Shown here piece after piece: positions 23,159-32,000 of a DNA stretch of 32,000 nucleotides. A model generated the notes under the pieces. That model saw only the letters and a program-made list of their open reading frames with translations. It was not told where the DNA came from and did no database searches. The stretch comes from Candidatus Nanosynbacter lyticus (GTDB lineage: Bacteria > Patescibacteriota > Saccharimonadia > Saccharimonadales > Saccharimonadaceae). The stretch spans positions 300,001 through 332,000 of the forward strand of contig NZ_CP007496.1 in NCBI RefSeq assembly GCF_000803625.1. Direction: 5' to 3'. The position numbers and the translations under genes are program-made. Every line of letters begins with the position of its first letter. Position 1 is the first letter of the stretch.

Positions 23159-23713
23159 GTGTGGAGTAAAAATGCTAGTACCATATCAGATTTTACTAAT
23201 TTTTATGCTTACTTCGCTAATCACCTAGTCAAGTATCAACCCGCGTACTTTATCGATTCTCTGTTCTATCGATCGTTTCGTCACAGTTCCCTCCTAACTT
23301 TGTTAAGACTGCGTTTTGGTAAAACTCTCTCTTCTTACGACTTTGCGAAAAAATTCAATGCTAAGAATGTTTTGATAGTTACTAATCACCCAGTAATTGC
23401 CAATTCATGGTTTGATGATTTTGAAAAGTTTATTGACGGGTATTATTTTATTTCGACGGCAGATTTTTTAAAAGAACGCGAAACTTTGTCTAGGGACGAA
23501 TTCCTTAATAAAGCTAATTCATCAAGTGAAGATGGGCAAACCTTCTTAAGTTTGCAGGATCTAAAAGGAGGTAGGGCTCTTGGCGGACCACACAATAAAT
23601 TAAAGTGGGCGGCGGATCTGAACTGAGATTTGTTGATTATAGATGAGTCTGGTAAGATGATCGAATTGGACGCAGAGAAAGTTTTGACTTATCATCACGA
23701 AGGAGGATGTTAA
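23159..23713 (+). pseudogene. Decayed SNF2/DEAD-like helicase gene fragment
   Basis: Motif I is degenerate (LRFGKTL) and motif Ia is NVLIVTNHPVIANSWFDDFEKF. An in-frame TGA at 23624-23626 splits ...KWAADLN*DLLIIDESG (DExx motif II). The frame ends 28 codons later, with no motifs III-VI. Confidence 0.65.
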
Positions 23714-23796
23714 CCGCTTTTGCGATAAGAAATAGCGAAAGTACGGTATACTTATAGTAAAGATATTTATAAGTTAATTTGCGGAAGGAAAATAAC

Positions 23797-26346
23797 GTGG
23801 CACAAAAGGAAGCTAAAGCGCGACTAAAGATAAATATGCTACTTTCTGATGCCGGGTGGAGATTGTTGGATAACGAAGACGGTCCCGCTAATGTCGATGT
23901 AGAAAACAAAGTAGATATCGAAAACCTGGGCGATGATTTTGAAAATACGAGACGAGGGTTTGTCGATTACCTTCTTCTAGGCTCTAACCAGAAGCCCATT
24001 GCCGTCCTTGAAGCTAAGCGTGAAAGCATTCCTCCGCTTTCCGCTAAAGAACAAGCTCGCGATTATGCCAATTCTCTACACTTAAGGTATGTAATTCTTA
24101 GTAACGGCAACACGCATTATCTGTGGGATATGCAATTTGGTAACCCCGAGCCAATTAGTAGCTTTCCGACTCTAAGCTCATTAGAAGATGAAAAGAAATG
24201 GGTTTCCGATGTTGATGCGCTTGTAAACGAGAATATTTCTCGAACCTATATCGCCGAATCTCAAATGCCTGAAATTAAAACGCATCCCGATTATATAAAC
24301 GAAGATACTCGTAGTGAATTTATAGAGAAAAATAAACTGAAAATCCTTCGCAAGTATCAGGTAAATGCGATTAAGGCCGTTCAAAAATCGGCGCAAAACG
24401 GCAATAAACGCTTCCTGCTCGAGATGGCGACTGGCACCGGAAAAACTTTAACTTGCGCTGCTATTATCAAACTATTTCTAAAGACAGGAAACGCTCAGAG
24501 AATCCTCTTTTTGGTTGACCGCATTGAATTAGAAAATCAGGCCAAGAAGTCTTTTAGGCAGTCCATCGGTAAAGATTACGTGGTTAAGGTGTGGAAGGAA
24601 GATAGAGATAACTGGAAGACTGCCGATATCGTTATTAGTACGGTCCAATCTCTTTTGGCGAGTAGTCGCTATCGTGATTTTAGTCCGAATGACTTTAATT
24701 TAATTATCTCAGATGAGGCGCATCGTTCTATTGGCGGCAACGCGAGAGCTGTTTTCGAATATTTCACTGGGTACAAGATTGGGCTTACCGCCACACCGAA
24801 GGATTTTTTAAAGAATACCAAGCAAGATGAAAATTCAGAAAAAGAATTCGAACGCAGAGAGTTATTGGATACCTATAGGACTTTTGGGTGCGAATCTGGT
24901 CAACCGACTTTTAGATATGACCTAAAAGATGGCGTAAACGATCCTGATGGTCCGTTTTTGGTGAATCCCGTCATCCTGGATGCTAGGACGAATATTACCT
25001 CACGACTGCTCGCAGATGAAGGCTATGCAGTCCATAAAATTATTGATGGCGAAGATGTTGACGAGAATTTTGGTATCAGAGATTTCGAGAAAACATTTTT
25101 CAATGAAGAGACCAATCGCGTGTTCTGTGAGACTTTTATGAAATACGCGGCGGTCGATCCGTTATCTAAAGAAATTGGTAAAACCATCATCTTTACTGTT
25201 AGCCAAAAACACGCAGAAAAAATAGTCCAAATGCTTAACCAAATTGCTATGGAAAAGTTCCCTGGTAAGTATAATTCTGATTTCGCTATTCAGATTACGA
25301 GTAATGTTCGTGACGCTCAACAGCTCTCGATTAGTTTTTCTGAAAATAATCTGCGCGGACATACAAGGTGGCTTTCGGATTACGAAAGTAGTCGCACTAG
25401 AGTCGCCGTCACGGTCGGCATGATGACGACCGGTTACGATTGCTCCGATTTATTAAATCTCGTGTTCATGCGTCCAGTGTTTAGCCCTTCTGACTTTATT
25501 CAGATGAAAGGTCGAGGTACGCGACTCCATACGTTCAAATATGTAGATTATGAAAATGGCGAGAAAGTTAAAACTATTAAGAAAGAAAACTTCCGTATTA
25601 TAGACTTTTTCGCAGTTTGCGAATACTTCGAAGAAAAATACGACTATAATGCGCCGTTGGTAGTGCCAATGAGTAGGCAAACGCAAAACACTTTAGTGAC
25701 GCCGCTGCTTATCGATGTCGATCCTCCCGTGATCGTGGTAAACCGTACGGTAGACCTGAATGAGAATGATTCCCTGAGTGGAATAGATGAGACGATTGTT
25801 GGTAAAGAAGGCATGCGCGTTGATCGCGAGATGTTCCGCAGCTTCCAAGATGAGGTGAAATCTAATGAAGAATTCGTCAAGTTGTATAATAATGGCAATA
25901 TTGATGGGGCGCTAAGCTATCTTAAATCCGAAATACTCGGCGAAGATAAGCCTAAGTTCTATATGACTCCTGAGAAAATTCGCAAAATCTTCAATCTAGA
26001 CCGCAGGCTAGACCTTCGTGAGATTCTGGATCTAATCATGAACAATAAAGAGCCATTGACTAAAGCTCAATATATCCAGCAAAAGTTTAATGAACTTATT
26101 TCGGATAAAGGGCTGAGTGAAACTTTGGTTGGAGAGTTGTACAACGATGCATTTGAATTATTTGATGCGTATATCACTGATCGACGCGTGTCTGAGGCTA
26201 TAGATAATAGAGATTATAGTCTACTGGCTGGATTCGGCTCTATTACAATCGAACAGCTCAAACGCCTAGGTATCGAAAGAGTAAATCAGATTATTAGCTA
26301 TATTAGAGATTATATTAATGTAGAAAAACTAAGAGTAAAGGATTAA
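23797..26346 (+). CDS. hsdR: Type I restriction enzyme R subunit (HsdR)
   Basis: The N-terminal nuclease domain has EAKARLKINMLLSDAGW and a PD-(D/E)xK-like VDY...LEAKRE. Helicase motifs are LEMATGTGKTLT, IISDEAHRS and GLTATP...QMKGRGTR. A GTG start at 23797 follows GGAAGGA; the track starts at a TTG at 23779. Confidence 0.9.
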   Translation: MAQKEAKARLKINMLLSDAGWRLLDNEDGPANVDVENKVDIENLGDDFENTRRGFVDYLLLGSNQKPIAVLEAKRESIPPLSAKEQARDYANSLHLRYVILSNGNTHYLWDMQFGNPEPISSFPTLSSLEDEKKWVSDVDALVNENISRTYIAESQMPEIKTHPDYINEDTRSEFIEKNKLKILRKYQVNAIKAVQKSAQNGNKRFLLEMATGTGKTLTCAAIIKLFLKTGNAQRILFLVDRIELENQAKKSFRQSIGKDYVVKVWKEDRDNWKTADIVISTVQSLLASSRYRDFSPNDFNLIISDEAHRSIGGNARAVFEYFTGYKIGLTATPKDFLKNTKQDENSEKEFERRELLDTYRTFGCESGQPTFRYDLKDGVNDPDGPFLVNPVILDARTNITSRLLADEGYAVHKIIDGEDVDENFGIRDFEKTFFNEETNRVFCETFMKYAAVDPLSKEIGKTIIFTVSQKHAEKIVQMLNQIAMEKFPGKYNSDFAIQITSNVRDAQQLSISFSENNLRGHTRWLSDYESSRTRVAVTVGMMTTGYDCSDLLNLVFMRPVFSPSDFIQMKGRGTRLHTFKYVDYENGEKVKTIKKENFRIIDFFAVCEYFEEKYDYNAPLVVPMSRQTQNTLVTPLLIDVDPPVIVVNRTVDLNENDSLSGIDETIVGKEGMRVDREMFRSFQDEVKSNEEFVKLYNNGNIDGALSYLKSEILGEDKPKFYMTPEKIRKIFNLDRRLDLREILDLIMNNKEPLTKAQYIQQKFNELISDKGLSETLVGELYNDAFELFDAYITDRRVSEAIDNRDYSLLAGFGSITIEQLKRLGIERVNQIISYIRDYINVEKLRVKD

Positions 26347-26349
26347 TGA

Positions 26350-27798
26350 ATGGACTATACCCAATTTAAACAAATAATAGATAATTCCCGCGATATTCTC
26401 ATGGGTAAATTACCAAGTCCAATCGCCCAGGTGGATGCAATTTCTTATGCACTTATTTATAAGTTCATGTCGGATACTGATGACGATTCTGCTGCACTTG
26501 GCGGCAAACGTACATATTTTTCTGGTGAATATGAAAAATATAGTTGGCACAATTTGATGAGCCCAACTACTACTGGTGCTGATCGCGTAATTCTTTATCG
26601 CAATGCCCTCGAGAATATGAGCCGCAATCCAAACATTCCTCCACTATTCCGTGAGATTTTTAATGGTGCGACACTTGGATTTACCGACTCAAATACACTT
26701 AACTTATTTCTTCGCGAAATCGATAAGATTAAGCAGAGTTCTGGCGACTCCATCGGTGACGTTTATGAATACCTTCTCTCCACTATGGGATCTCAAGATA
26801 AGCTTGGTCAGTTCCGAACACCTCGCCATATCATTGATATGATGGTTGAGCTTATTGATCCAGACAAATCTGATAAAATTCTAGACCCTGCTTGTGGCAC
26901 CGCAGGTTTCCTTATCTCTGCGTATAGCTGGATTAAGAAGAAGCACATTGAAAAAGAACGTTTGAATAGTGAGGATATTGAGAAAATTCATCGCAACTTC
27001 TACGGTTTTGATATCGAACCAAACATGGCTCGTATCGCTCGTGTAAACTTGTTCCTGCATGGCTTTAAATCCCCTCATATTATTGAGCATGATACGCTCA
27101 GCTCAGAAGATTACTGGGATGACCGTTATGATGTGATTCTTGCGAATCCGCCATTCATGACGCCAAAAGGCGGTATCACCCCGCATAAGAAGTTTGGGAT
27201 TACTTCAAAACGTGCTGAGCTTCTGTTTGTTGATTATATCGCTTCTCATTTGAAGCCGAATGGTCGCGCAGCTGTAATTGTGCCTGATGGTGTTCTGTTC
27301 CGCAGTAGCTCTGCACACAAAGCACTCAGGAAAGAAATTGTCGAAAATAAGAAGCTTCAAGCTGTTATTTCGATGCCTTCGGGCGTATTTAAGCCATATG
27401 CTGGTGTTTCTACGGCGATTTTAGTATTTACTAACTCAAGTAATGAAAGAACCGACAAGGTTTGGTTTTACGACATGAAAATAGATGGATATAGTCTTGA
27501 TGACAAGCGCTCAAAGCTCAAAACAAGTGACGTCCCCGATATTCTTGCAAGGTTTAAAAACCTTGATGGTGAGAAAGATCGTAAACGCAACGAGCAATCA
27601 TTCTTTGTGGATAAAGATGAGATAGTCAAAAACGGCTATGACCTAACGATCAACAAATATAAGGAAGTCGAATACGAGAAAGTTGAATACCCACCAACTT
27701 CTGAAATTATAGCTGAGATTAAGAAATTAGATCGTGAAGCTTCCGAAAGTCTGACCGAACTTGAAAAATTATTAAACGAAACAAATCCGGATTTGTAG
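26350..27798 (+). CDS. hsdM: Type I R-M N6-adenine DNA methyltransferase subunit (HsdM)
   Basis: 482 aa. The SAM-binding motif is ILDPACGTAGFLI and the catalytic motif is LANPPFMTP. It starts 3 nt after the hsdR stop. Confidence 0.93.
   Translation: MDYTQFKQIIDNSRDILMGKLPSPIAQVDAISYALIYKFMSDTDDDSAALGGKRTYFSGEYEKYSWHNLMSPTTTGADRVILYRNALENMSRNPNIPPLFREIFNGATLGFTDSNTLNLFLREIDKIKQSSGDSIGDVYEYLLSTMGSQDKLGQFRTPRHIIDMMVELIDPDKSDKILDPACGTAGFLISAYSWIKKKHIEKERLNSEDIEKIHRNFYGFDIEPNMARIARVNLFLHGFKSPHIIEHDTLSSEDYWDDRYDVILANPPFMTPKGGITPHKKFGITSKRAELLFVDYIASHLKPNGRAAVIVPDGVLFRSSSAHKALRKEIVENKKLQAVISMPSGVFKPYAGVSTAILVFTNSSNERTDKVWFYDMKIDGYSLDDKRSKLKTSDVPDILARFKNLDGEKDRKRNEQSFFVDKDEIVKNGYDLTINKYKEVEYEKVEYPPTSEIIAEIKKLDREASESLTELEKLLNETNPDL
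27629..27798 (+). repeat. Outer inverted repeat, left arm (last 56 codons plus stop of hsdM)
   Basis: This 170-bp arm is identical to the reverse complement of 30974-31143, compared base by base. The flanking bases on both sides mismatch. Confidence 0.95.
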
Positions 27799-27805
27799 AT
27801 ATATC

Positions 27806-28825
27806 ATGAAAGTTAAACTTGGAGAGCTAACGAAGATTAGAACCGGCAAATTGGACGCCAATGCGGCTTCTGATGATGGCACGTATCCATTCTTTACATG
27901 TTCGAAAGAGCCGTTGCGAATATCTACATATTCATATGATTGCGAGTGTGTACTAGTTGCGGGAAATGGCGATCTAAATGTCAAATATTACAACGGAAAA
28001 TTTGACGCATATCAACGAACGTACATTGTCGAATCTAACGGCGACGGAAGACTTCATCTTCCATACCTCTATCATTTTATGACGCGGTATATTCAGGAAT
28101 TAAGAAAACTATCGATTGGCGGAGTTATTAAATATATTAAACTAGGCAATCTTACTGATGCGGAAATATCGCTTCCCGATATTAAAGAACAAAAAACCGC
28201 ATGCAAAAAACTTGAGAAAATTAAAAACATTATAGATAAAAAAGAATCGCAACTTTTTTACCTAGATAATCTTATCAAAGCCCGATTTGTCGAGATGTTT
28301 GATGATAACTTTGGCGAAATCGTTGAACTCGGAAATGTCTGTGATGTACGCGACGGTACTCATGATTCACCAAAGTATCACAATGCAGGCTATCCGCTCG
28401 TAACATCAAAAAATATATGCGATGGGAAAATAGATTTTTCGACCTGTAATTTAATCCAGAAAGAAGATTATGTCAAGATTAATAAAAGATCCAAGGTCGA
28501 TGTCGGTGATGTTTTAATGCCTATGATTGGCACTGTTGGCAATCCTATTATTGTAAATACCGACAAGGAATTCGCCATCAAAAATGTAGCACTAATTAAA
28601 TTTAAAGACGATTCCGTAATTCTTAATACGTTCATAAAAACATTGCTTGAGTCAGATTATTTTGGCAGGGCCGTACTCAGTAAAACAAAAGGTGGGACGC
28701 AGAAATTCATTTCACTTGGCGATATTAGAAAATTGGAGTTTAATTTACCGCCAATCGAACTACAACACCGATTTGCCACCTTTGTCGCCCAAATCGACAA
28801 ATCAAAATTTGCCGCTAAGCAATGA
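27806..28825 (+). CDS. hsdS: Type I R-M specificity subunit HsdS, allele 1 (expression position; distal conserved helix truncated)
   Basis: 339 aa. It has a unique TRD1, a central conserved helix (LPDIKEQK...LIKARFVEMF), and a TRD2 identical to allele 2. It ends ...IDKSKFAAKQ*, lacking about 21 aa that allele 2 has. It starts 7 nt after the hsdM stop. Confidence 0.9.
   Translation: MKVKLGELTKIRTGKLDANAASDDGTYPFFTCSKEPLRISTYSYDCECVLVAGNGDLNVKYYNGKFDAYQRTYIVESNGDGRLHLPYLYHFMTRYIQELRKLSIGGVIKYIKLGNLTDAEISLPDIKEQKTACKKLEKIKNIIDKKESQLFYLDNLIKARFVEMFDDNFGEIVELGNVCDVRDGTHDSPKYHNAGYPLVTSKNICDGKIDFSTCNLIQKEDYVKINKRSKVDVGDVLMPMIGTVGNPIIVNTDKEFAIKNVALIKFKDDSVILNTFIKTLLESDYFGRAVLSKTKGGTQKFISLGDIRKLEFNLPPIELQHRFATFVAQIDKSKFAAKQ
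28274..28812 (+). repeat. Inner inverted repeat, left arm (TRD2 plus flanking conserved-region codons of hsdS-1)
   Basis: This 539-bp arm matches the reverse complement of 29903-30441. The encoded protein is identical over about 180 aa, and the DNA matched at all segments checked by eye. Confidence 0.9.
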
Positions 28826-29783
28826 ACTTGCGATGTGCAACTTTTACGTTCGTTTGATTAACTATAGCATAACGCATAGTCGTATCGATCTGAGAATGTC
28901 CGAGTAGCTTCTGAACTTGTTCAATAGGCATCCCTTTATCAATTGCACGTGTTGCCATAGTCCGGCGGAACTTATGCGGATGAACCTTATTTATGCCTAA
29001 TTCGCGCCCTAAGCGTCTCAGGCGGATTTCTACGCCAGATATCTGTAATCTATTGTAAGGCGCATCAAGTGTCACAAAAAGGGCAGGATTTGTGTCAAAG
29101 CGGCTATTTATGTAGCTCATTAGGTGTATTTTAGTTTTTGCGTCGAAATATACGCGTCTTTCTTTATCGCCCTTACCGAAAACAATGCATTCGCGTTCTT
29201 CGAAATCTATATCGTCGATATTAAGTCGCACGAGTTCGCCAATTCTTATTCCAGTAGAATAAAGTAGATCAATTATCGCTAAGTCGCGTAAATTTTTACA
29301 TTTATCTCGCATCTTTTCAATTTCCTCATCGGAAATAACCTCTTTCACGGTTTTCGTAGTTTTAATTTTGTGGATGCGCCGCATTGGGCTTTTGATGATA
29401 TAATCTTCCTCTTCGAGCCATGTAAAGAAGCTTGAGATATTGCGACGGATATTATCAATAGTTGTTTTACTGCAATCATTTAAACCTTGATAGTTAGCCA
29501 AATATTCACGTATATCGTCGGTAGTTACTTTACGTATTGGATCATCTACTTCATCTAGTAGTTTCTCTACAGTAGTCTTGTAATAGGCCAATGTCCGTTC
29601 AGAGCATCCTTCTATCTTTTTAGCATTCAAAAACATCGACAAATAATTGTCGTTTGAAATGCCATTTATAGATCTCGTTTCTTTTGTAAGGCGCGAAACG
29701 AGCACGCGCTGTAATTTTTGTGACTGATTTGCGGTGAGATATTCGTCCATATCCACCAAAATGTATTTAATGGCGTCTTCCAT
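28815..29783 (-). CDS. Tyrosine site-specific recombinase (XerC/D-integrase family), predicted hsdS invertase
   Basis: 322 aa. The catalytic set is TGIRIGEL (Arg), HPHKFRRT (H-x-x-R) and LLGHSQIDTTMRY (His/Tyr). An AAAGGAG RBS is present. Its 3' end overlaps the hsdS-1 stop by 11 nt on the opposite strand. Confidence 0.9.
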   Translation of the reverse strand: MEDAIKYILVDMDEYLTANQSQKLQRVLVSRLTKETRSINGISNDNYLSMFLNAKKIEGCSERTLAYYKTTVEKLLDEVDDPIRKVTTDDIREYLANYQGLNDCSKTTIDNIRRNISSFFTWLEEEDYIIKSPMRRIHKIKTTKTVKEVISDEEIEKMRDKCKNLRDLAIIDLLYSTGIRIGELVRLNIDDIDFEERECIVFGKGDKERRVYFDAKTKIHLMSYINSRFDTNPALFVTLDAPYNRLQISGVEIRLRRLGRELGINKVHPHKFRRTMATRAIDKGMPIEQVQKLLGHSQIDTTMRYAIVNQTNVKVAHRKFIA

Positions 29784-29835
29784 TAATAACTCCTTTCGTT
29801 AGATTGGCACCTCCACTAACAAAAGGAATAACTTT

Positions 29836-30966
29836 TTAGCCAAAATACTCCTGCATTAAACTATCAAATAGAAGTTGCGTTTTTTCTAGCGACTTTTGTA
29901 CAGCAAATTTTGATTTGTCGATTTGGGCGACAAAGGTGGCAAATCGGTGTTGTAGTTCGATTGGCGGTAAATTAAACTCCAATTTTCTAATATCGCCAAG
30001 TGAAATGAATTTCTGCGTCCCACCTTTTGTTTTACTGAGTACGGCCCTGCCAAAATAATCTGACTCAAGCAATGTTTTTATGAACGTATTAAGAATTACG
30101 GAATCGTCTTTAAATTTAATTAGTGCTACATTTTTGATGGCGAATTCCTTGTCGGTATTTACAATAATAGGATTGCCAACAGTGCCAATCATAGGCATTA
30201 AAACATCACCGACATCGACCTTGGATCTTTTATTAATCTTGACATAATCTTCTTTCTGGATTAAATTACAGGTCGAAAAATCTATTTTCCCATCGCATAT
30301 ATTTTTTGATGTTACGAGCGGATAGCCTGCATTGTGATACTTTGGTGAATCATGAGTACCGTCGCGTACATCACAGACATTTCCGAGTTCAACGATTTCG
30401 CCAAAGTTATCATCAAACATCTCGACAAATCGGGCTTTGATGAGCTCATCTAATGCTTCGATCTTTTTCTTGTCGTGTGTAATTATCTCGGAGATAACAT
30501 CAAGTGTTCTAACGATTTTGTTTTGCTTTTCTACGGATTCGCATATGCTAATTTTGAAGTCGCTAAATTGCGTTTTATTAATAATCGGAACGACCGGCGC
30601 GTTCGCTATAGCCTTCAGTTGTTTTCGATTGGCATAGATGGCATATGCCAAGTATTTTGGAATAATTGCTTCATTCGGAACGATAGCATTTATCTGTTGA
30701 TTAAACGAGACTTCTTCTTCCGTTATGCCGACTCGTCCTATTTTCCCAATACACGTGACAAGTATACTATTTGCTGGTACTATTCTAGAAACGTTTTTGG
30801 CGCTGGCGGAGATATACTCATTTGCACTAGATATGACACATAATTCGTCTTTTATCACATCCGGTTTAATAAACTTGATGTTTCTATTACTCCAATATTC
30901 GTCGACCTTTTTGCTCGGAGTATTTCCCGTAAATATCGTACCCAATTCTTTCAGTCTTACCTTCAT
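29836..30966 (-). CDS. hsdS: Type I R-M specificity subunit HsdS, allele 2 (silent/inverted position; full-length distal helix)
   Basis: 376 aa. It has a different TRD1 and the same TRD2 as allele 1. The distal conserved region is complete (LPPIELQHRFATFVAQIDKSKFAVQKSLEKTQLLFDSLMQEYFG). Confidence 0.9.
   Translation of the reverse strand: MKVRLKELGTIFTGNTPSKKVDEYWSNRNIKFIKPDVIKDELCVISSANEYISASAKNVSRIVPANSILVTCIGKIGRVGITEEEVSFNQQINAIVPNEAIIPKYLAYAIYANRKQLKAIANAPVVPIINKTQFSDFKISICESVEKQNKIVRTLDVISEIITHDKKKIEALDELIKARFVEMFDDNFGEIVELGNVCDVRDGTHDSPKYHNAGYPLVTSKNICDGKIDFSTCNLIQKEDYVKINKRSKVDVGDVLMPMIGTVGNPIIVNTDKEFAIKNVALIKFKDDSVILNTFIKTLLESDYFGRAVLSKTKGGTQKFISLGDIRKLEFNLPPIELQHRFATFVAQIDKSKFAVQKSLEKTQLLFDSLMQEYFG
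29903..30441 (-). repeat. Inner inverted repeat, right arm
   Basis: It is the reverse complement of 28274-28812. Confidence 0.9.
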
Positions 30967-30973
30967 ATCGTAC

Positions 30974-31143
30974 CTACAAATCCGGATTTGTTTCGTTTAA
31001 TAATTTTTCAAGTTCGGTCAGACTTTCGGAAGCTTCACGATCTAATTTCTTAATCTCAGCTATAATTTCAGAAGTTGGTGGGTATTCAACTTTCTCGTAT
31101 TCGACTTCCTTATATTTGTTGATCGTTAGGTCATAGCCGTTTT
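30974..31143 (-). repeat. Outer inverted repeat, right arm: silent copy of the hsdM 3' end
   Basis: It is the reverse complement of 27629-27798. An in-frame TAA lies immediately upstream of the copy, so it is not an expressed gene fragment by itself. Confidence 0.95.
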
Positions 31144-31431
31144 AAGGCAGTAGAATAGGCGCCAATCTCACCGAATAATTCTAAAAACTTTCGTACATTC
31201 CCCTAAAAGAGGTACTCGGCAGTATAAGCCGGAGTAGATATAGTAAAAAGTTATTTTCAAGTCTTCGTAAGAATCCTTTCGGTTAAAATTATTATTCTTT
31301 GTACTGGTGGGCCACCACTCTGAATTTAATGCACTAAGAAAAGACTTGTATATCGGGTTTCCTAGGACGATTCTCGTATGAGCAAAAGAAGGCTCGCAAT
31401 CTTTCGATCACGAGCCTTAAATATCTTATTG

Positions 31432-31507
31432 TGGAGCCACGATCGGGGCTTGAACCCGAGACCTCATCCTTACCATGGATGCGCTCTACCAACTGAGCTA
31501 TCGCGGC
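31432..31507 (-). tRNA. tRNA-Thr (anticodon GGU), CCA end encoded
   Basis: Hand-folded cloverleaf of 76 nt. Acceptor GCCGCGA/TCGTGGC, anticodon stem CATCC/GGATG with loop ATGGTAA, and T arm TCGGG-TTCAAGC-CCCGA. Confidence 0.9.
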
Positions 31508-31554
31508 GTAACAGGCTTAATTTTAGCACATTAAGCCGTGTTTAATCAACTGAG

Positions 31555-31860
31555 TCATTTTTTACGAGTGGATTTCTTGGTTGGCGTACCGACTTCTTTT
31601 GGTAGTTTCGGCGTGACAAACGCTTCTATTATTCCCCACGCTATGCTATTGACCAAGAAAGTAACGAACAATATTCCTGAAGCTGATGCCGCCAAGTGCG
31701 CCGATGAGGCGTTAAATAATGTCAATAATCCCGCCGCAGTTAGCCCAATTATAGCCAGCATAATATAAGCGTATTGTAATTTCAATCGTTGGTTTTTTTC
31801 GCTATTCCATAATGTAAGAATAGATTTTGTAAATTCAAACATATCCATATAATAGCACAT
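31555..31860 (-). CDS. Small two-TM membrane protein with a Lys-rich tail (hypothetical)
   Basis: Two hydrophobic helices (YAYIMLAIIGLTAAGLLTLF and ILFVTFLVNSIAWGIIEAFV). The start is uncertain: ATGs at 31860, 31848 and 31842. The track's TTG at 31899 overlaps the tRNA-Tyr terminator. Confidence 0.5.
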   Translation of the reverse strand: MCYYMDMFEFTKSILTLWNSEKNQRLKLQYAYIMLAIIGLTAAGLLTLFNASSAHLAASASGILFVTFLVNSIAWGIIEAFVTPKLPKEVGTPTKKSTRKK

Positions 31861-31897
31861 ATGCTTATAAAAGTCAATATTACTACTTTGCGCTATC

Positions 31898-31921
31898 AAA
31901 AAGTCGCCCCAAAAAGGCGAC
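31898..31921 (-). terminator. Terminator after tRNA-Tyr
   Basis: On the minus strand, GTCGCC, loop TTTTTGG and GGCGAC are followed by TTTTT. Confidence 0.6.
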
Positions 31922-31934
31922 GATGATTCAAATT

Positions 31935-32000
31935 TGGTGCTGGAAGTAGGACTCGAACCTACGAAGCCTTACGGCGGGAGATTTACAGTCTCCTGTGATT
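31935..32000 (-). tRNA. tRNA-Tyr (anticodon GUA), partial: the 5' end lies beyond the window
   Basis: Anticodon stem GGAGA/TCTCC with loop CTGTAAA, a long variable arm, T arm GTAGG-TTCGAGT-CCTAC, and a 3' end of TTCCAGC-A-CCA. Confidence 0.8.

Follow-up and report, generated by a model that had tools for sequence, protein, structure and literature searches.

A tail-only inversion at the hsdS shufflon of Candidatus Nanosynbacter lyticus TM7x and its predicted effect on Type I restriction-modification

In the Type I restriction-modification locus of Candidatus Nanosynbacter lyticus TM7x, two hsdS genes face each other across a recombinase gene, and the copy linked to hsdM encodes a specificity subunit that lacks the end of its last conserved helix. 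What does inversion exchange at such a locus, and is the truncated subunit functional? The locus lies in a stretch of 32,000 nucleotides (nt) of contig NZ_CP007496.1 (assembly GCF_000803625.1, positions 300,001 to 332,000 of the forward strand), referred to here as the window, from whose first letter coordinates are counted. TM7x is a model cultivated member of the Saccharibacteria (Patescibacteria, or candidate phyla radiation) that lives as an oral epibiont, and its restriction barrier bears on phage defence, uptake of DNA from its host and genetic tractability. We propose, with a probability of about 0.6, that a cassette comprising the C-terminal tail of HsdS and the recombinase gene flips between the two hsdS genes, that the form left with a stub is OFF or strongly weakened, and that the recombinase is produced by read-through.

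The inner inversion of this locus exchanges a C-terminal helix tail and the orientation of the recombinase gene, and no target recognition domain (TRD). The second TM7x assembly, CP040011, matches window positions 23932-32000 with 0 mismatches over 8,069 base pairs (bp) after reverse-complementing 28813-29902; without this step there are 818 mismatches, every one of which is within 28813-29902. The proteins predicted to result from the inversion are present exactly in CP040011: QCT41490.1, of 357 amino acids (aa), corresponds to full-tail hsdS-1, and QCT41492.1 (358 aa) to stub-bearing hsdS-2. The gene order in that assembly is hsdM, full-tail hsdS-1, recombinase (plus strand) and stub hsdS-2 (minus strand), the recombinase gene being co-directional with hsdS-1 and 52 nt downstream of it. 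Both orientations exist in public assemblies: full-tail hsdS-1 is carried by five sequencing-run assemblies, and the arrangement of the window (hsdM, stub hsdS-1, recombinase on the minus strand) is also found in one independent metagenome contig. The features of the locus are as follows.

23779-26346, plus strand: hsdR, an open reading frame (ORF) of 855 aa; Pfam ResIII, HSDR_N and SWI2_SNF2
26350-27798, plus strand: hsdM, ORF of 482 aa; Pfam N6_Mtase, E = 5e-69; identical to AJA06441.1
27806-28825, plus strand: hsdS-1, hsdM-linked, 339 aa; TRD1a, first conserved region (CR1), TRD2a and half of the second (CR2); Pfam Methylase_S; identical to AJA06442.1
28815-29783, minus strand: tyrosine recombinase, 322 aa; Pfam Phage_integrase (8e-36) and Phage_int_SAM_4; NCBIfam NF040815 at 260 bits (cut-off 220)
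29836-30966, minus strand: hsdS-2, not hsdM-linked, 376 aa; TRD1b, CR1, TRD2a and full CR2; Methylase_S, E = 4e-33; identical to AJA06444.1
28813-29902, unstranded: invertible segment with stub codons, recombinase gene, leader hairpin and canonical tail; reverse-complemented in CP040011
28814-28825, plus strand: stub AKQ and stop, crossing the recombinase stop codon
29839-29901, minus strand: canonical tail VQKSLEKTQLLFDSLMQEYFG, residues 356-376 of HsdS-2
27629-27819, unstranded: left arm of the outer inverted repeat, last 170 nt of hsdM and the hsdS start; 191 nt, 96% complementary, perfect over 27629-27798
30953-31143, unstranded: right arm of the outer repeat, a copy of the hsdM 3' end without promoter or start
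28263-28812, unstranded: left arm of the inner inverted repeat, end of CR1, TRD2a and first half of CR2; 550 nt, 99% complementary
29903-30452, unstranded: right arm of the inner repeat, pairing with 28263-28812

[quoted passage not shown] The inner repeat is perfect over 539 nt (28274-28812 against 29903-30441), its sole three mismatches being at 28268, 28270 and 28273. The hsdS-1 product ends in IDKSKFAAKQ, its gene overlapping the convergent recombinase gene by 11 nt; that of hsdS-2 ends in IDKSKFAVQKSLEKTQLLFDSLMQEYFG, reading VQKSLEKTQLLFDSLMQEYFG and then a stop after KSKFA. The repeat comparison, the ORFs and CP040011 bear out every sequence statement of a preliminary description of this DNA, which had placed the inner repeat ends at 28812 and 29903, had given hsdS-2 the full tail and the hsdM-linked copy the truncated AKQ end that runs into the antisense 3' end of the recombinase gene, and had predicted that inverting 28813-29902 would swap full tail and stub rather than a TRD. 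Its further expectation, that the recombinase is always co-directional with, and downstream of, the full-tail hsdS, holds in both the window and CP040011. The hsdS-2 product (AJA06444.1) is mislabelled ‘tRNA isopentenyltransferase’ in GenBank and UniRef; it is an HsdS.

The repeats contain short putative recombination cores. The motif CAAAT-N4-ATTTG matches exactly at four places in the 32-kb window, where 0.18 would be expected (0 of 100 shuffles). When one mismatch is allowed the pair in the central helix is also found, and the motif is confined to six shufflon positions. These form three classes, each present as one inverted pair, in which the central 4 nt are CCGG (A, hsdM stop), CCCG (B, central helix) or CAAA (C, distal helix).

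27781-27796, unstranded: core site A, left copy, at the hsdM stop codon; ACAAATCCGGATTTGT is a perfect 16-bp palindrome
30976-30991, unstranded: core site A, right copy, from the motif scan
28275-28290, unstranded: core site B, left copy TCAAAGCCCGATTTGT, within the IKARFV codons
30425-30440, unstranded: core site B, right copy, from the motif scan
28797-28812, unstranded: core site C, left copy ACAAATCAAAATTTGC, within the DKSKFA codons, the closing bases of the inner repeat
29903-29918, unstranded: core site C, right copy, from the motif scan

The two best-conserved patches of HsdS, KARFVEMF and QVDKSKFA, contain cores B and C. Through the CAAAT and ATTTG half-sites common to A, B and C, the locus has midpoint and tail-end repeats that share a short core, as in TvrR-like systems. 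The core would be the crossover site of the recombinase, and the differing central 4 nt would limit exchange by this tyrosine recombinase to like core pairs. The core A palindrome ACAAATCCGGATTTGT doubles as the C-terminal codons of hsdM (TNPDL and stop), and its symmetric centre implies a site without intrinsic direction, such that deletion besides inversion might be possible. In a Saccharibacteria metagenome-assembled genome (L016:3696-8415; L numbers denote the loci compared), two A-type cores flank a unit of full-tail hsdS and recombinase. As assembled, this locus has no hsdS downstream of hsdM, which runs into the antisense recombinase as a 543-aa fusion ORF, an arrangement that would switch the system off by disconnecting hsdS.

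The nature of the distal site is clarified by contigs that encode a 100% identical recombinase and carry a second, different TRD2 (...NIEQQHSFSNFVAQVDKSKFA). These two-TRD2 contigs have three short repeats: one of ~51 nt lies at the hsdM stop, a 38-nt one falls in the central helix, and the third, in the distal helix, spans 50 nt and closes precisely at KSKFA; in relatives a separate repeat of 38-41 nt occupies the position of site B. TRD2a is joined to the tail and TRD2b to the stub in L003, the converse linkage (TRD2b-tail, TRD2a-stub) is found in L006 and L008, and all four combinations of TRD2 with tail or stub are seen among strains with two TRD2s. The junctions have only TCGACAAATCAAAATTTGC in common. 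As exchange at the distal site is the only event able to interconvert the TRD2-tail linkages, these sequences mark site C, in the distal helix, as a dedicated third recombination site and no by-product of the 550-nt repeat. The latter can be read as site B, a homogenised TRD2 and site C, because the two TRD2s of TM7x are identical. The same TRD2 (539 nt identical) is present in both hsdS genes of TM7x, against two different TRD2s in the identical-recombinase strains (compared: L003, L004, L006, L008 and L010), and gene conversion has probably cost TM7x one of its specificity domains and so half of its repertoire.

An AlphaFold2 model of HsdS-2 (predicted local distance difference test score (pLDDT) 91.4, 52-sequence alignment) displays two 40-residue helices, at 145-184 and 336-375, and tail residues 356-376 form the C-terminal half of the latter. 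The AKQ form keeps both TRDs, and of the 40 residues in the distal conserved helix it lacks the last 20, at the C-terminal end. Foldseek identified the PacII S subunit (7VS4_C, TM-score 0.79) as the closest solved structure, and the MjaXI and EcoKI S subunits were also matched. In PacII, CR1 and CR2 form a four-helix bundle with the C-terminal tails of the M subunits, and deletion of the M tail abolishes assembly (PMC9613975); the coiled coil of HsdS serves as a ruler between the TRDs (PMC9613975; Loenen review). The distal helix makes up half of the coiled coil bundling with the HsdM C-terminal tails; the stub HsdS would therefore assemble poorly with HsdM, and the present state of the window would be OFF or strongly weakened for methylation and restriction alike. 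On the sequence and the model, the AKQ form probably loses function.

Selection on the tail was explored by codon analysis of 109 distinct sequences, the tail being measured on codons not used to select the set. Tail codons displayed a ratio of nonsynonymous to synonymous differences (pN/pS) of 0.20 at a pS of 0.87, compared with a pN/pS of 0.80 at the end of TRD2. In the codons of core C (GTC GAC AAA TCA AAA) pS was 0.30, while adjoining codons were saturated. The saturated synonymous change in the tail and the low pS of the core indicate that the tail is conserved as protein and the core as DNA, and by this measure no other part of HsdS in this family is under protein-level constraint as strong as that on the tail. 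The view that the 21 missing amino acids belong to the conserved distal helix, also put forward in the preliminary description, agrees with both the structure model and the codon data. A DNA-level role for the tail, as a promoter or a long recombination site, had been prompted by its high DNA identity and was rejected, as its synonymous sites are saturated and the DNA constraint is limited to the core.

The layout of the TM7x locus was compared with relatives of the recombinase that adjoin hsdS, taking the best 80 of 579 confirmed matches. Within this set, recombinases 64-98% identical to that of TM7x adjoin hsdS in at least five phyla, the taxa including Saccharibacteria, many Firmicutes, Akkermansia, Alloscardovia, Thermoguttaceae and Gastranaerophilales. 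In nearly all of the 80, 40-60 nt separate the recombinase start from the end of an upstream canonical tail, [VF]AVQK[AS]L[DE]ETQLLFDSLMQ[EKQ]YFG. The second hsdS copy, which is usually co-directional and downstream, stops after QVDKSK with an unrelated stub of 1-35 aa (VMH, VVA, FK, FC, L, FVGIK, FDEMSEV etc.). The layout is thus family-wide, each locus having a single canonical tail that sits directly upstream of the recombinase. The recombinase and its neighbouring tail are 64-72% identical between the taxa named above. Such similarity across phyla, while the adjacent TRDs are unrelated, suggests that tail and recombinase form a horizontally spreading module.

The state of the expressed position was assessed in a census of the 19 contigs that link hsdM to its downstream hsdS. 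A canonical tail with a co-directional recombinase was found in 15 (11 metagenome contigs plus L001, L012, L015 and L017), and a non-canonical end with an antisense recombinase in four (L095, L097, L002 and the window). Against a 50:50 expectation this gives a one-sided binomial p of ~0.01, although the samples are not independent. The census is in keeping with a complete state that is favoured and a minority state that is tolerated. It contradicts a kinetic trap, in which the recombinase would be made in the tail state alone and cells would accumulate in the stub state.

Inversion at A, B or C always moves the tail to the other gene, so each single inversion toggles the expressed gene between tail and stub, and a specificity change that ends in a complete HsdS needs two inversions. 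Each such change would go through a tail-less intermediate. By anatomy TM7x has four states (TRD1a or TRD1b, each with tail or stub) and the two-TRD2 strains have eight. Two further features bear on the expression of the recombinase and hsdS-2.

29784-29835, minus strand: recombinase leader hairpin, from a minimum-free-energy fold
31389-31418, minus strand: strong terminator-like hairpin with a 13-bp stem, after tRNA-Thr (31432-31507) and upstream of hsdS-2

A sigma-70 scan detected no convincing promoter for the recombinase or hsdS-2, and the minus strand between 31388 and 30966 contains no promoter-like site. Within the hsdM fragment that precedes hsdS-2 there is no canonical start codon, and a TAA stands in frame at the repeat boundary; translational coupling to hsdS-2 is therefore lost. 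In addition, no obvious ribosome-binding site was found for hsdS-2, and the terminator after tRNA-Thr argues against read-through into this gene. With no promoter found for either gene, and with the terminator and the start-less hsdM fragment in front of hsdS-2, expression of the recombinase is likely by read-through, which we infer would come mainly from the full-tail hsdS and be damped by the leader hairpin over the ribosome-binding site. In the minimum-free-energy fold of the 52-nt leader, CUCCUUU pairs with the ribosome-binding site AAAGGAG. Relatives (L018-L090, positions -50 to -1) also retain, with compensatory changes, a hairpin abutting the recombinase start: paired cells made up 81.7%, compared with 27-51% in slid controls, and cells with a double change numbered 36, compared with 12 in shuffles, none of 500 of which reached the observed value. 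RNAalifold returned no consensus structure for the recombinase leader; the hairpin then passed the explicit-structure test.

Several points weigh against the view that a flipping tail-recombinase cassette leaves the stub form OFF. That the crossover occurs inside the core and depends on the recombinase is something we infer from the sequence, and RecA-mediated recombination across 550 nt could also invert the TM7x segment. An assembler can mis-orient a perfect 550-nt repeat, so the TM7x pair of assemblies is no proof of inversion within a culture, and no sample with both states turned up when this was looked for. The assignment of the locus as TvrR-like is tentative, being taken from the clade table of PMC7672463. 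In the HsdS-like S subunit of BsaXI, deletions of 8-32 residues in a CR helix retain partial activity (PMC9159934), and ‘OFF’ may consequently really mean ‘weakened’. Finally, both the original TM7x genome and one metagenome contig have the stub as their consensus, which indicates that it is well tolerated.

The last two of these points would be accommodated if the tail were dispensable. HsdS-1 with its AKQ end would then assemble and work, and the inner inversion would be silent for restriction-modification, its sole real effect being on recombinase orientation and expression, or the inversion would be a neutral by-product of sites B and C. The partial activity of the BsaXI helix deletions is in keeping with this explanation, as are the stub consensus in two of the three hsdM-linked TM7x-type records and the non-canonical ends at 4 of 19 hsdM-linked positions. 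However, dispensability sits poorly with a tail pN/pS of 0.20 at saturated pS when stubs are arbitrary in sequence and length, with the loss of half of the coiled coil that anchors HsdM, and with the prevalence of the canonical state at the expressed position by 15 to 4. We consider a dispensable tail unlikely, though it is a possibility to be taken seriously. A second explanation is that both hsdS genes are expressed, each from its duplicated upstream region, and that the tail picks the complete protein; the inner flip would then be a specificity switch between TRD1a and TRD1b and not an ON/OFF switch. The outer repeat does duplicate 170 nt upstream of both hsdS genes, and Anaerovibrio L075 has a 236-nt non-coding repeat before both of its copies. 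Against this, the minus strand upstream of hsdS-2 lacks a promoter-like site and carries a terminator just upstream, and hsdS-2 has neither translational coupling nor an obvious ribosome-binding site, making expression of both genes improbable. That the two states are an assembly artefact at a TM7x locus fixed in one orientation is very improbable, for although the 550-nt repeat exceeds short-read length and the states were never found together in one sample, the recombinase is intact with a conserved core at each repeat edge, and doubt over the assembly pair is mostly removed by related strains, in which the distal repeat is just ~20-50 nt and yet both TRD2-tail linkages and both hsdM-linked states occur.

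The AKQ stub results from a 1-nt difference in spacer length that is particular to the TM7x lineage and is shared by L014 (Ca. Minimicrobia vallesae). Between the recombinase stop and core C, TM7x and L014 have a spacer of 2 nt; that of L011, L012, L013 and L015 is 1 nt. With the 1-nt spacer, the convergent hsdS extends by 28-32 residues (LSNELAMCNFYVRLI...) that are antisense, codon for codon, to the recombinase C-terminus (window equivalent 28813-28907, plus strand). The frame for this antisense tail is open in most Saccharibacteria relatives; among 120 HsdS homologues the antisense tail occurs in ~30 (e.g. P0091 and P0100), and AKQ in TM7x proteins only. In AlphaFold models the antisense tail prolongs the distal helix, which again reaches 40 residues (329-368); block pLDDT values are 83 and 73. 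The cassette might, on these models, donate a tail from both ends, a canonical one and an amphipathic antisense helix (LSNELAMCNFYVRLI...), but we regard this as doubtful. If the antisense tail works, relatives would produce a pair of complete HsdS isoforms that differ in their coiled coils, and a 1-nt insertion would have turned the TM7x system into an ON/OFF one. No evidence of selection on the antisense tail was found, as its residue classes and stop positions are dictated by the recombinase codons: the classes are forced by the Asn, His, Lys and Gln codons opposite, and stops arise only at recombinase Leu or Ser codons. The conservative I/V, M/V and F/L changes at its heptad positions were likewise rejected as a signal of selection, given the exact antisense register with the recombinase. 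The 1-nt spacer difference (GC-C-GC versus GC-GC) lies outside any repeat tract. In L014 (3381-8053) the orthologous locus is decayed, with hsdM cut to 457 aa and both hsdS genes fragmented; its recombinase is intact and 93% identical.

The preliminary description offered an ON/OFF layer as a feature not known to be described for hsdS shufflons. Its novelty was overstated, and the central idea is anticipated in general terms: for clade 2 (TvrR-like) of their ‘epigenetic invertons’, Huang et al. 2020 had already foreseen both a truncated HsdS and ON/OFF switching, deliberately leaving those loci unstudied (PMC7672463). In that survey the Ca. Saccharibacteria loci are listed solely in clade 2 (PMC7672463). 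The prediction occupies one paragraph, and site anatomy, the tail-only flip, the single conserved tail and selection are not described there (PMC7672463). What is added beyond prior work is the three-site anatomy, the TM7x tail-only flip, the single strongly selected tail, the predicted toggle between tail and stub at each inversion, and the candidate antisense tail. A literature search on the TM7x methylome or TM7x hsdS found nothing specific.

Many Firmicutes have hsdS-linked recombinases to which that of TM7x is 64-72% identical, and the closest parallels are with the pneumococcal tvr locus (SpnIV, TvrR). At tvr, Kwun et al. 2018 reported a midpoint repeat and a tail-end repeat that have a core in common, and a hairpin attenuator before tvrR (PMC6265443). 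As in TM7x, a tyrosine recombinase lies within the Type I locus between hsdS pieces; the midpoint repeat and the ~70-bp ‘tail end repeat’ that shares its short core match sites B and C plus the tail; the hairpin, which in tvr limits expression, precedes the recombinase; and tvr also has arrangements yielding non-functional HsdS (PMC6265443). In contrast, the tvr repeats are direct and circles are excised and reintegrated, whereas the TM7x repeats are inverted and the segment flips. Direct repeats of the excision and reintegration type are not found in TM7x; most Firmicute relatives and L017 have the co-directional layout. The tvrAT toxin-antitoxin homologues carried by tvr are absent at the TM7x locus, which for its part has a third core class (A) at the hsdM stop.

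The clade-1 type shufflon SpnD39III/ivr of S. pneumoniae (cod; CreX/PsrA) and the shufflons of Mycoplasma pulmonis (hsd), Bacteroides fragilis and Listeria share with TM7x inverted repeats in the hsdS 5' ends and central conserved regions, a recombinase in the locus and inversions that alter the hsdM-linked hsdS. In these systems, however, each exchanged TRD2 brings a complete 3' end, so that all products are full length and specificity alone changes. The TM7x products are not all full length: one inversion class exchanges no TRD, and half of the states lack the tail. A switch between full-length and truncated HsdS also features in NgoAV (Neisseria gonorrhoeae) and the EcoR124I and EcoDXXI truncations. 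There the truncation removes TRD2 and the TRD1-CR1 half-subunit dimerises and recognises a palindrome, whereas TM7x keeps both TRDs and loses half of its last helix. NgoAV switches through a poly-G tract rather than by inversion, and no homopolymer or short tandem tract of this type was found at the TM7x hsdS ends. The position of the recombinase downstream of the full-tail hsdS also suggests a likeness to E. coli fim (FimE orientation control), where recombinase expression follows the orientation of the element; fim inverts a promoter, while TM7x inverts a coding tail and its recombinase expression would depend on orientation.

These data supply a concrete anatomy for the clade-2 (TvrR-like) loci, which earlier surveys had set aside as ‘peculiar’: a strongly conserved tail that travels with the recombinase, three core classes and a predicted tail/stub toggle at each inversion. 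If the stub state is OFF, the methylome and transformability of laboratory stocks could vary with their flip state. The TM7x locus is, moreover, a natural setting in which to test what portion of the HsdS coiled coil HsdM assembly requires.

Directly upstream of hsdR, at 23159-23626, lies a 155-aa ORF (…NHPVIANSWFDDFEKFI…) that has no Pfam match and resembles a gene fragment.

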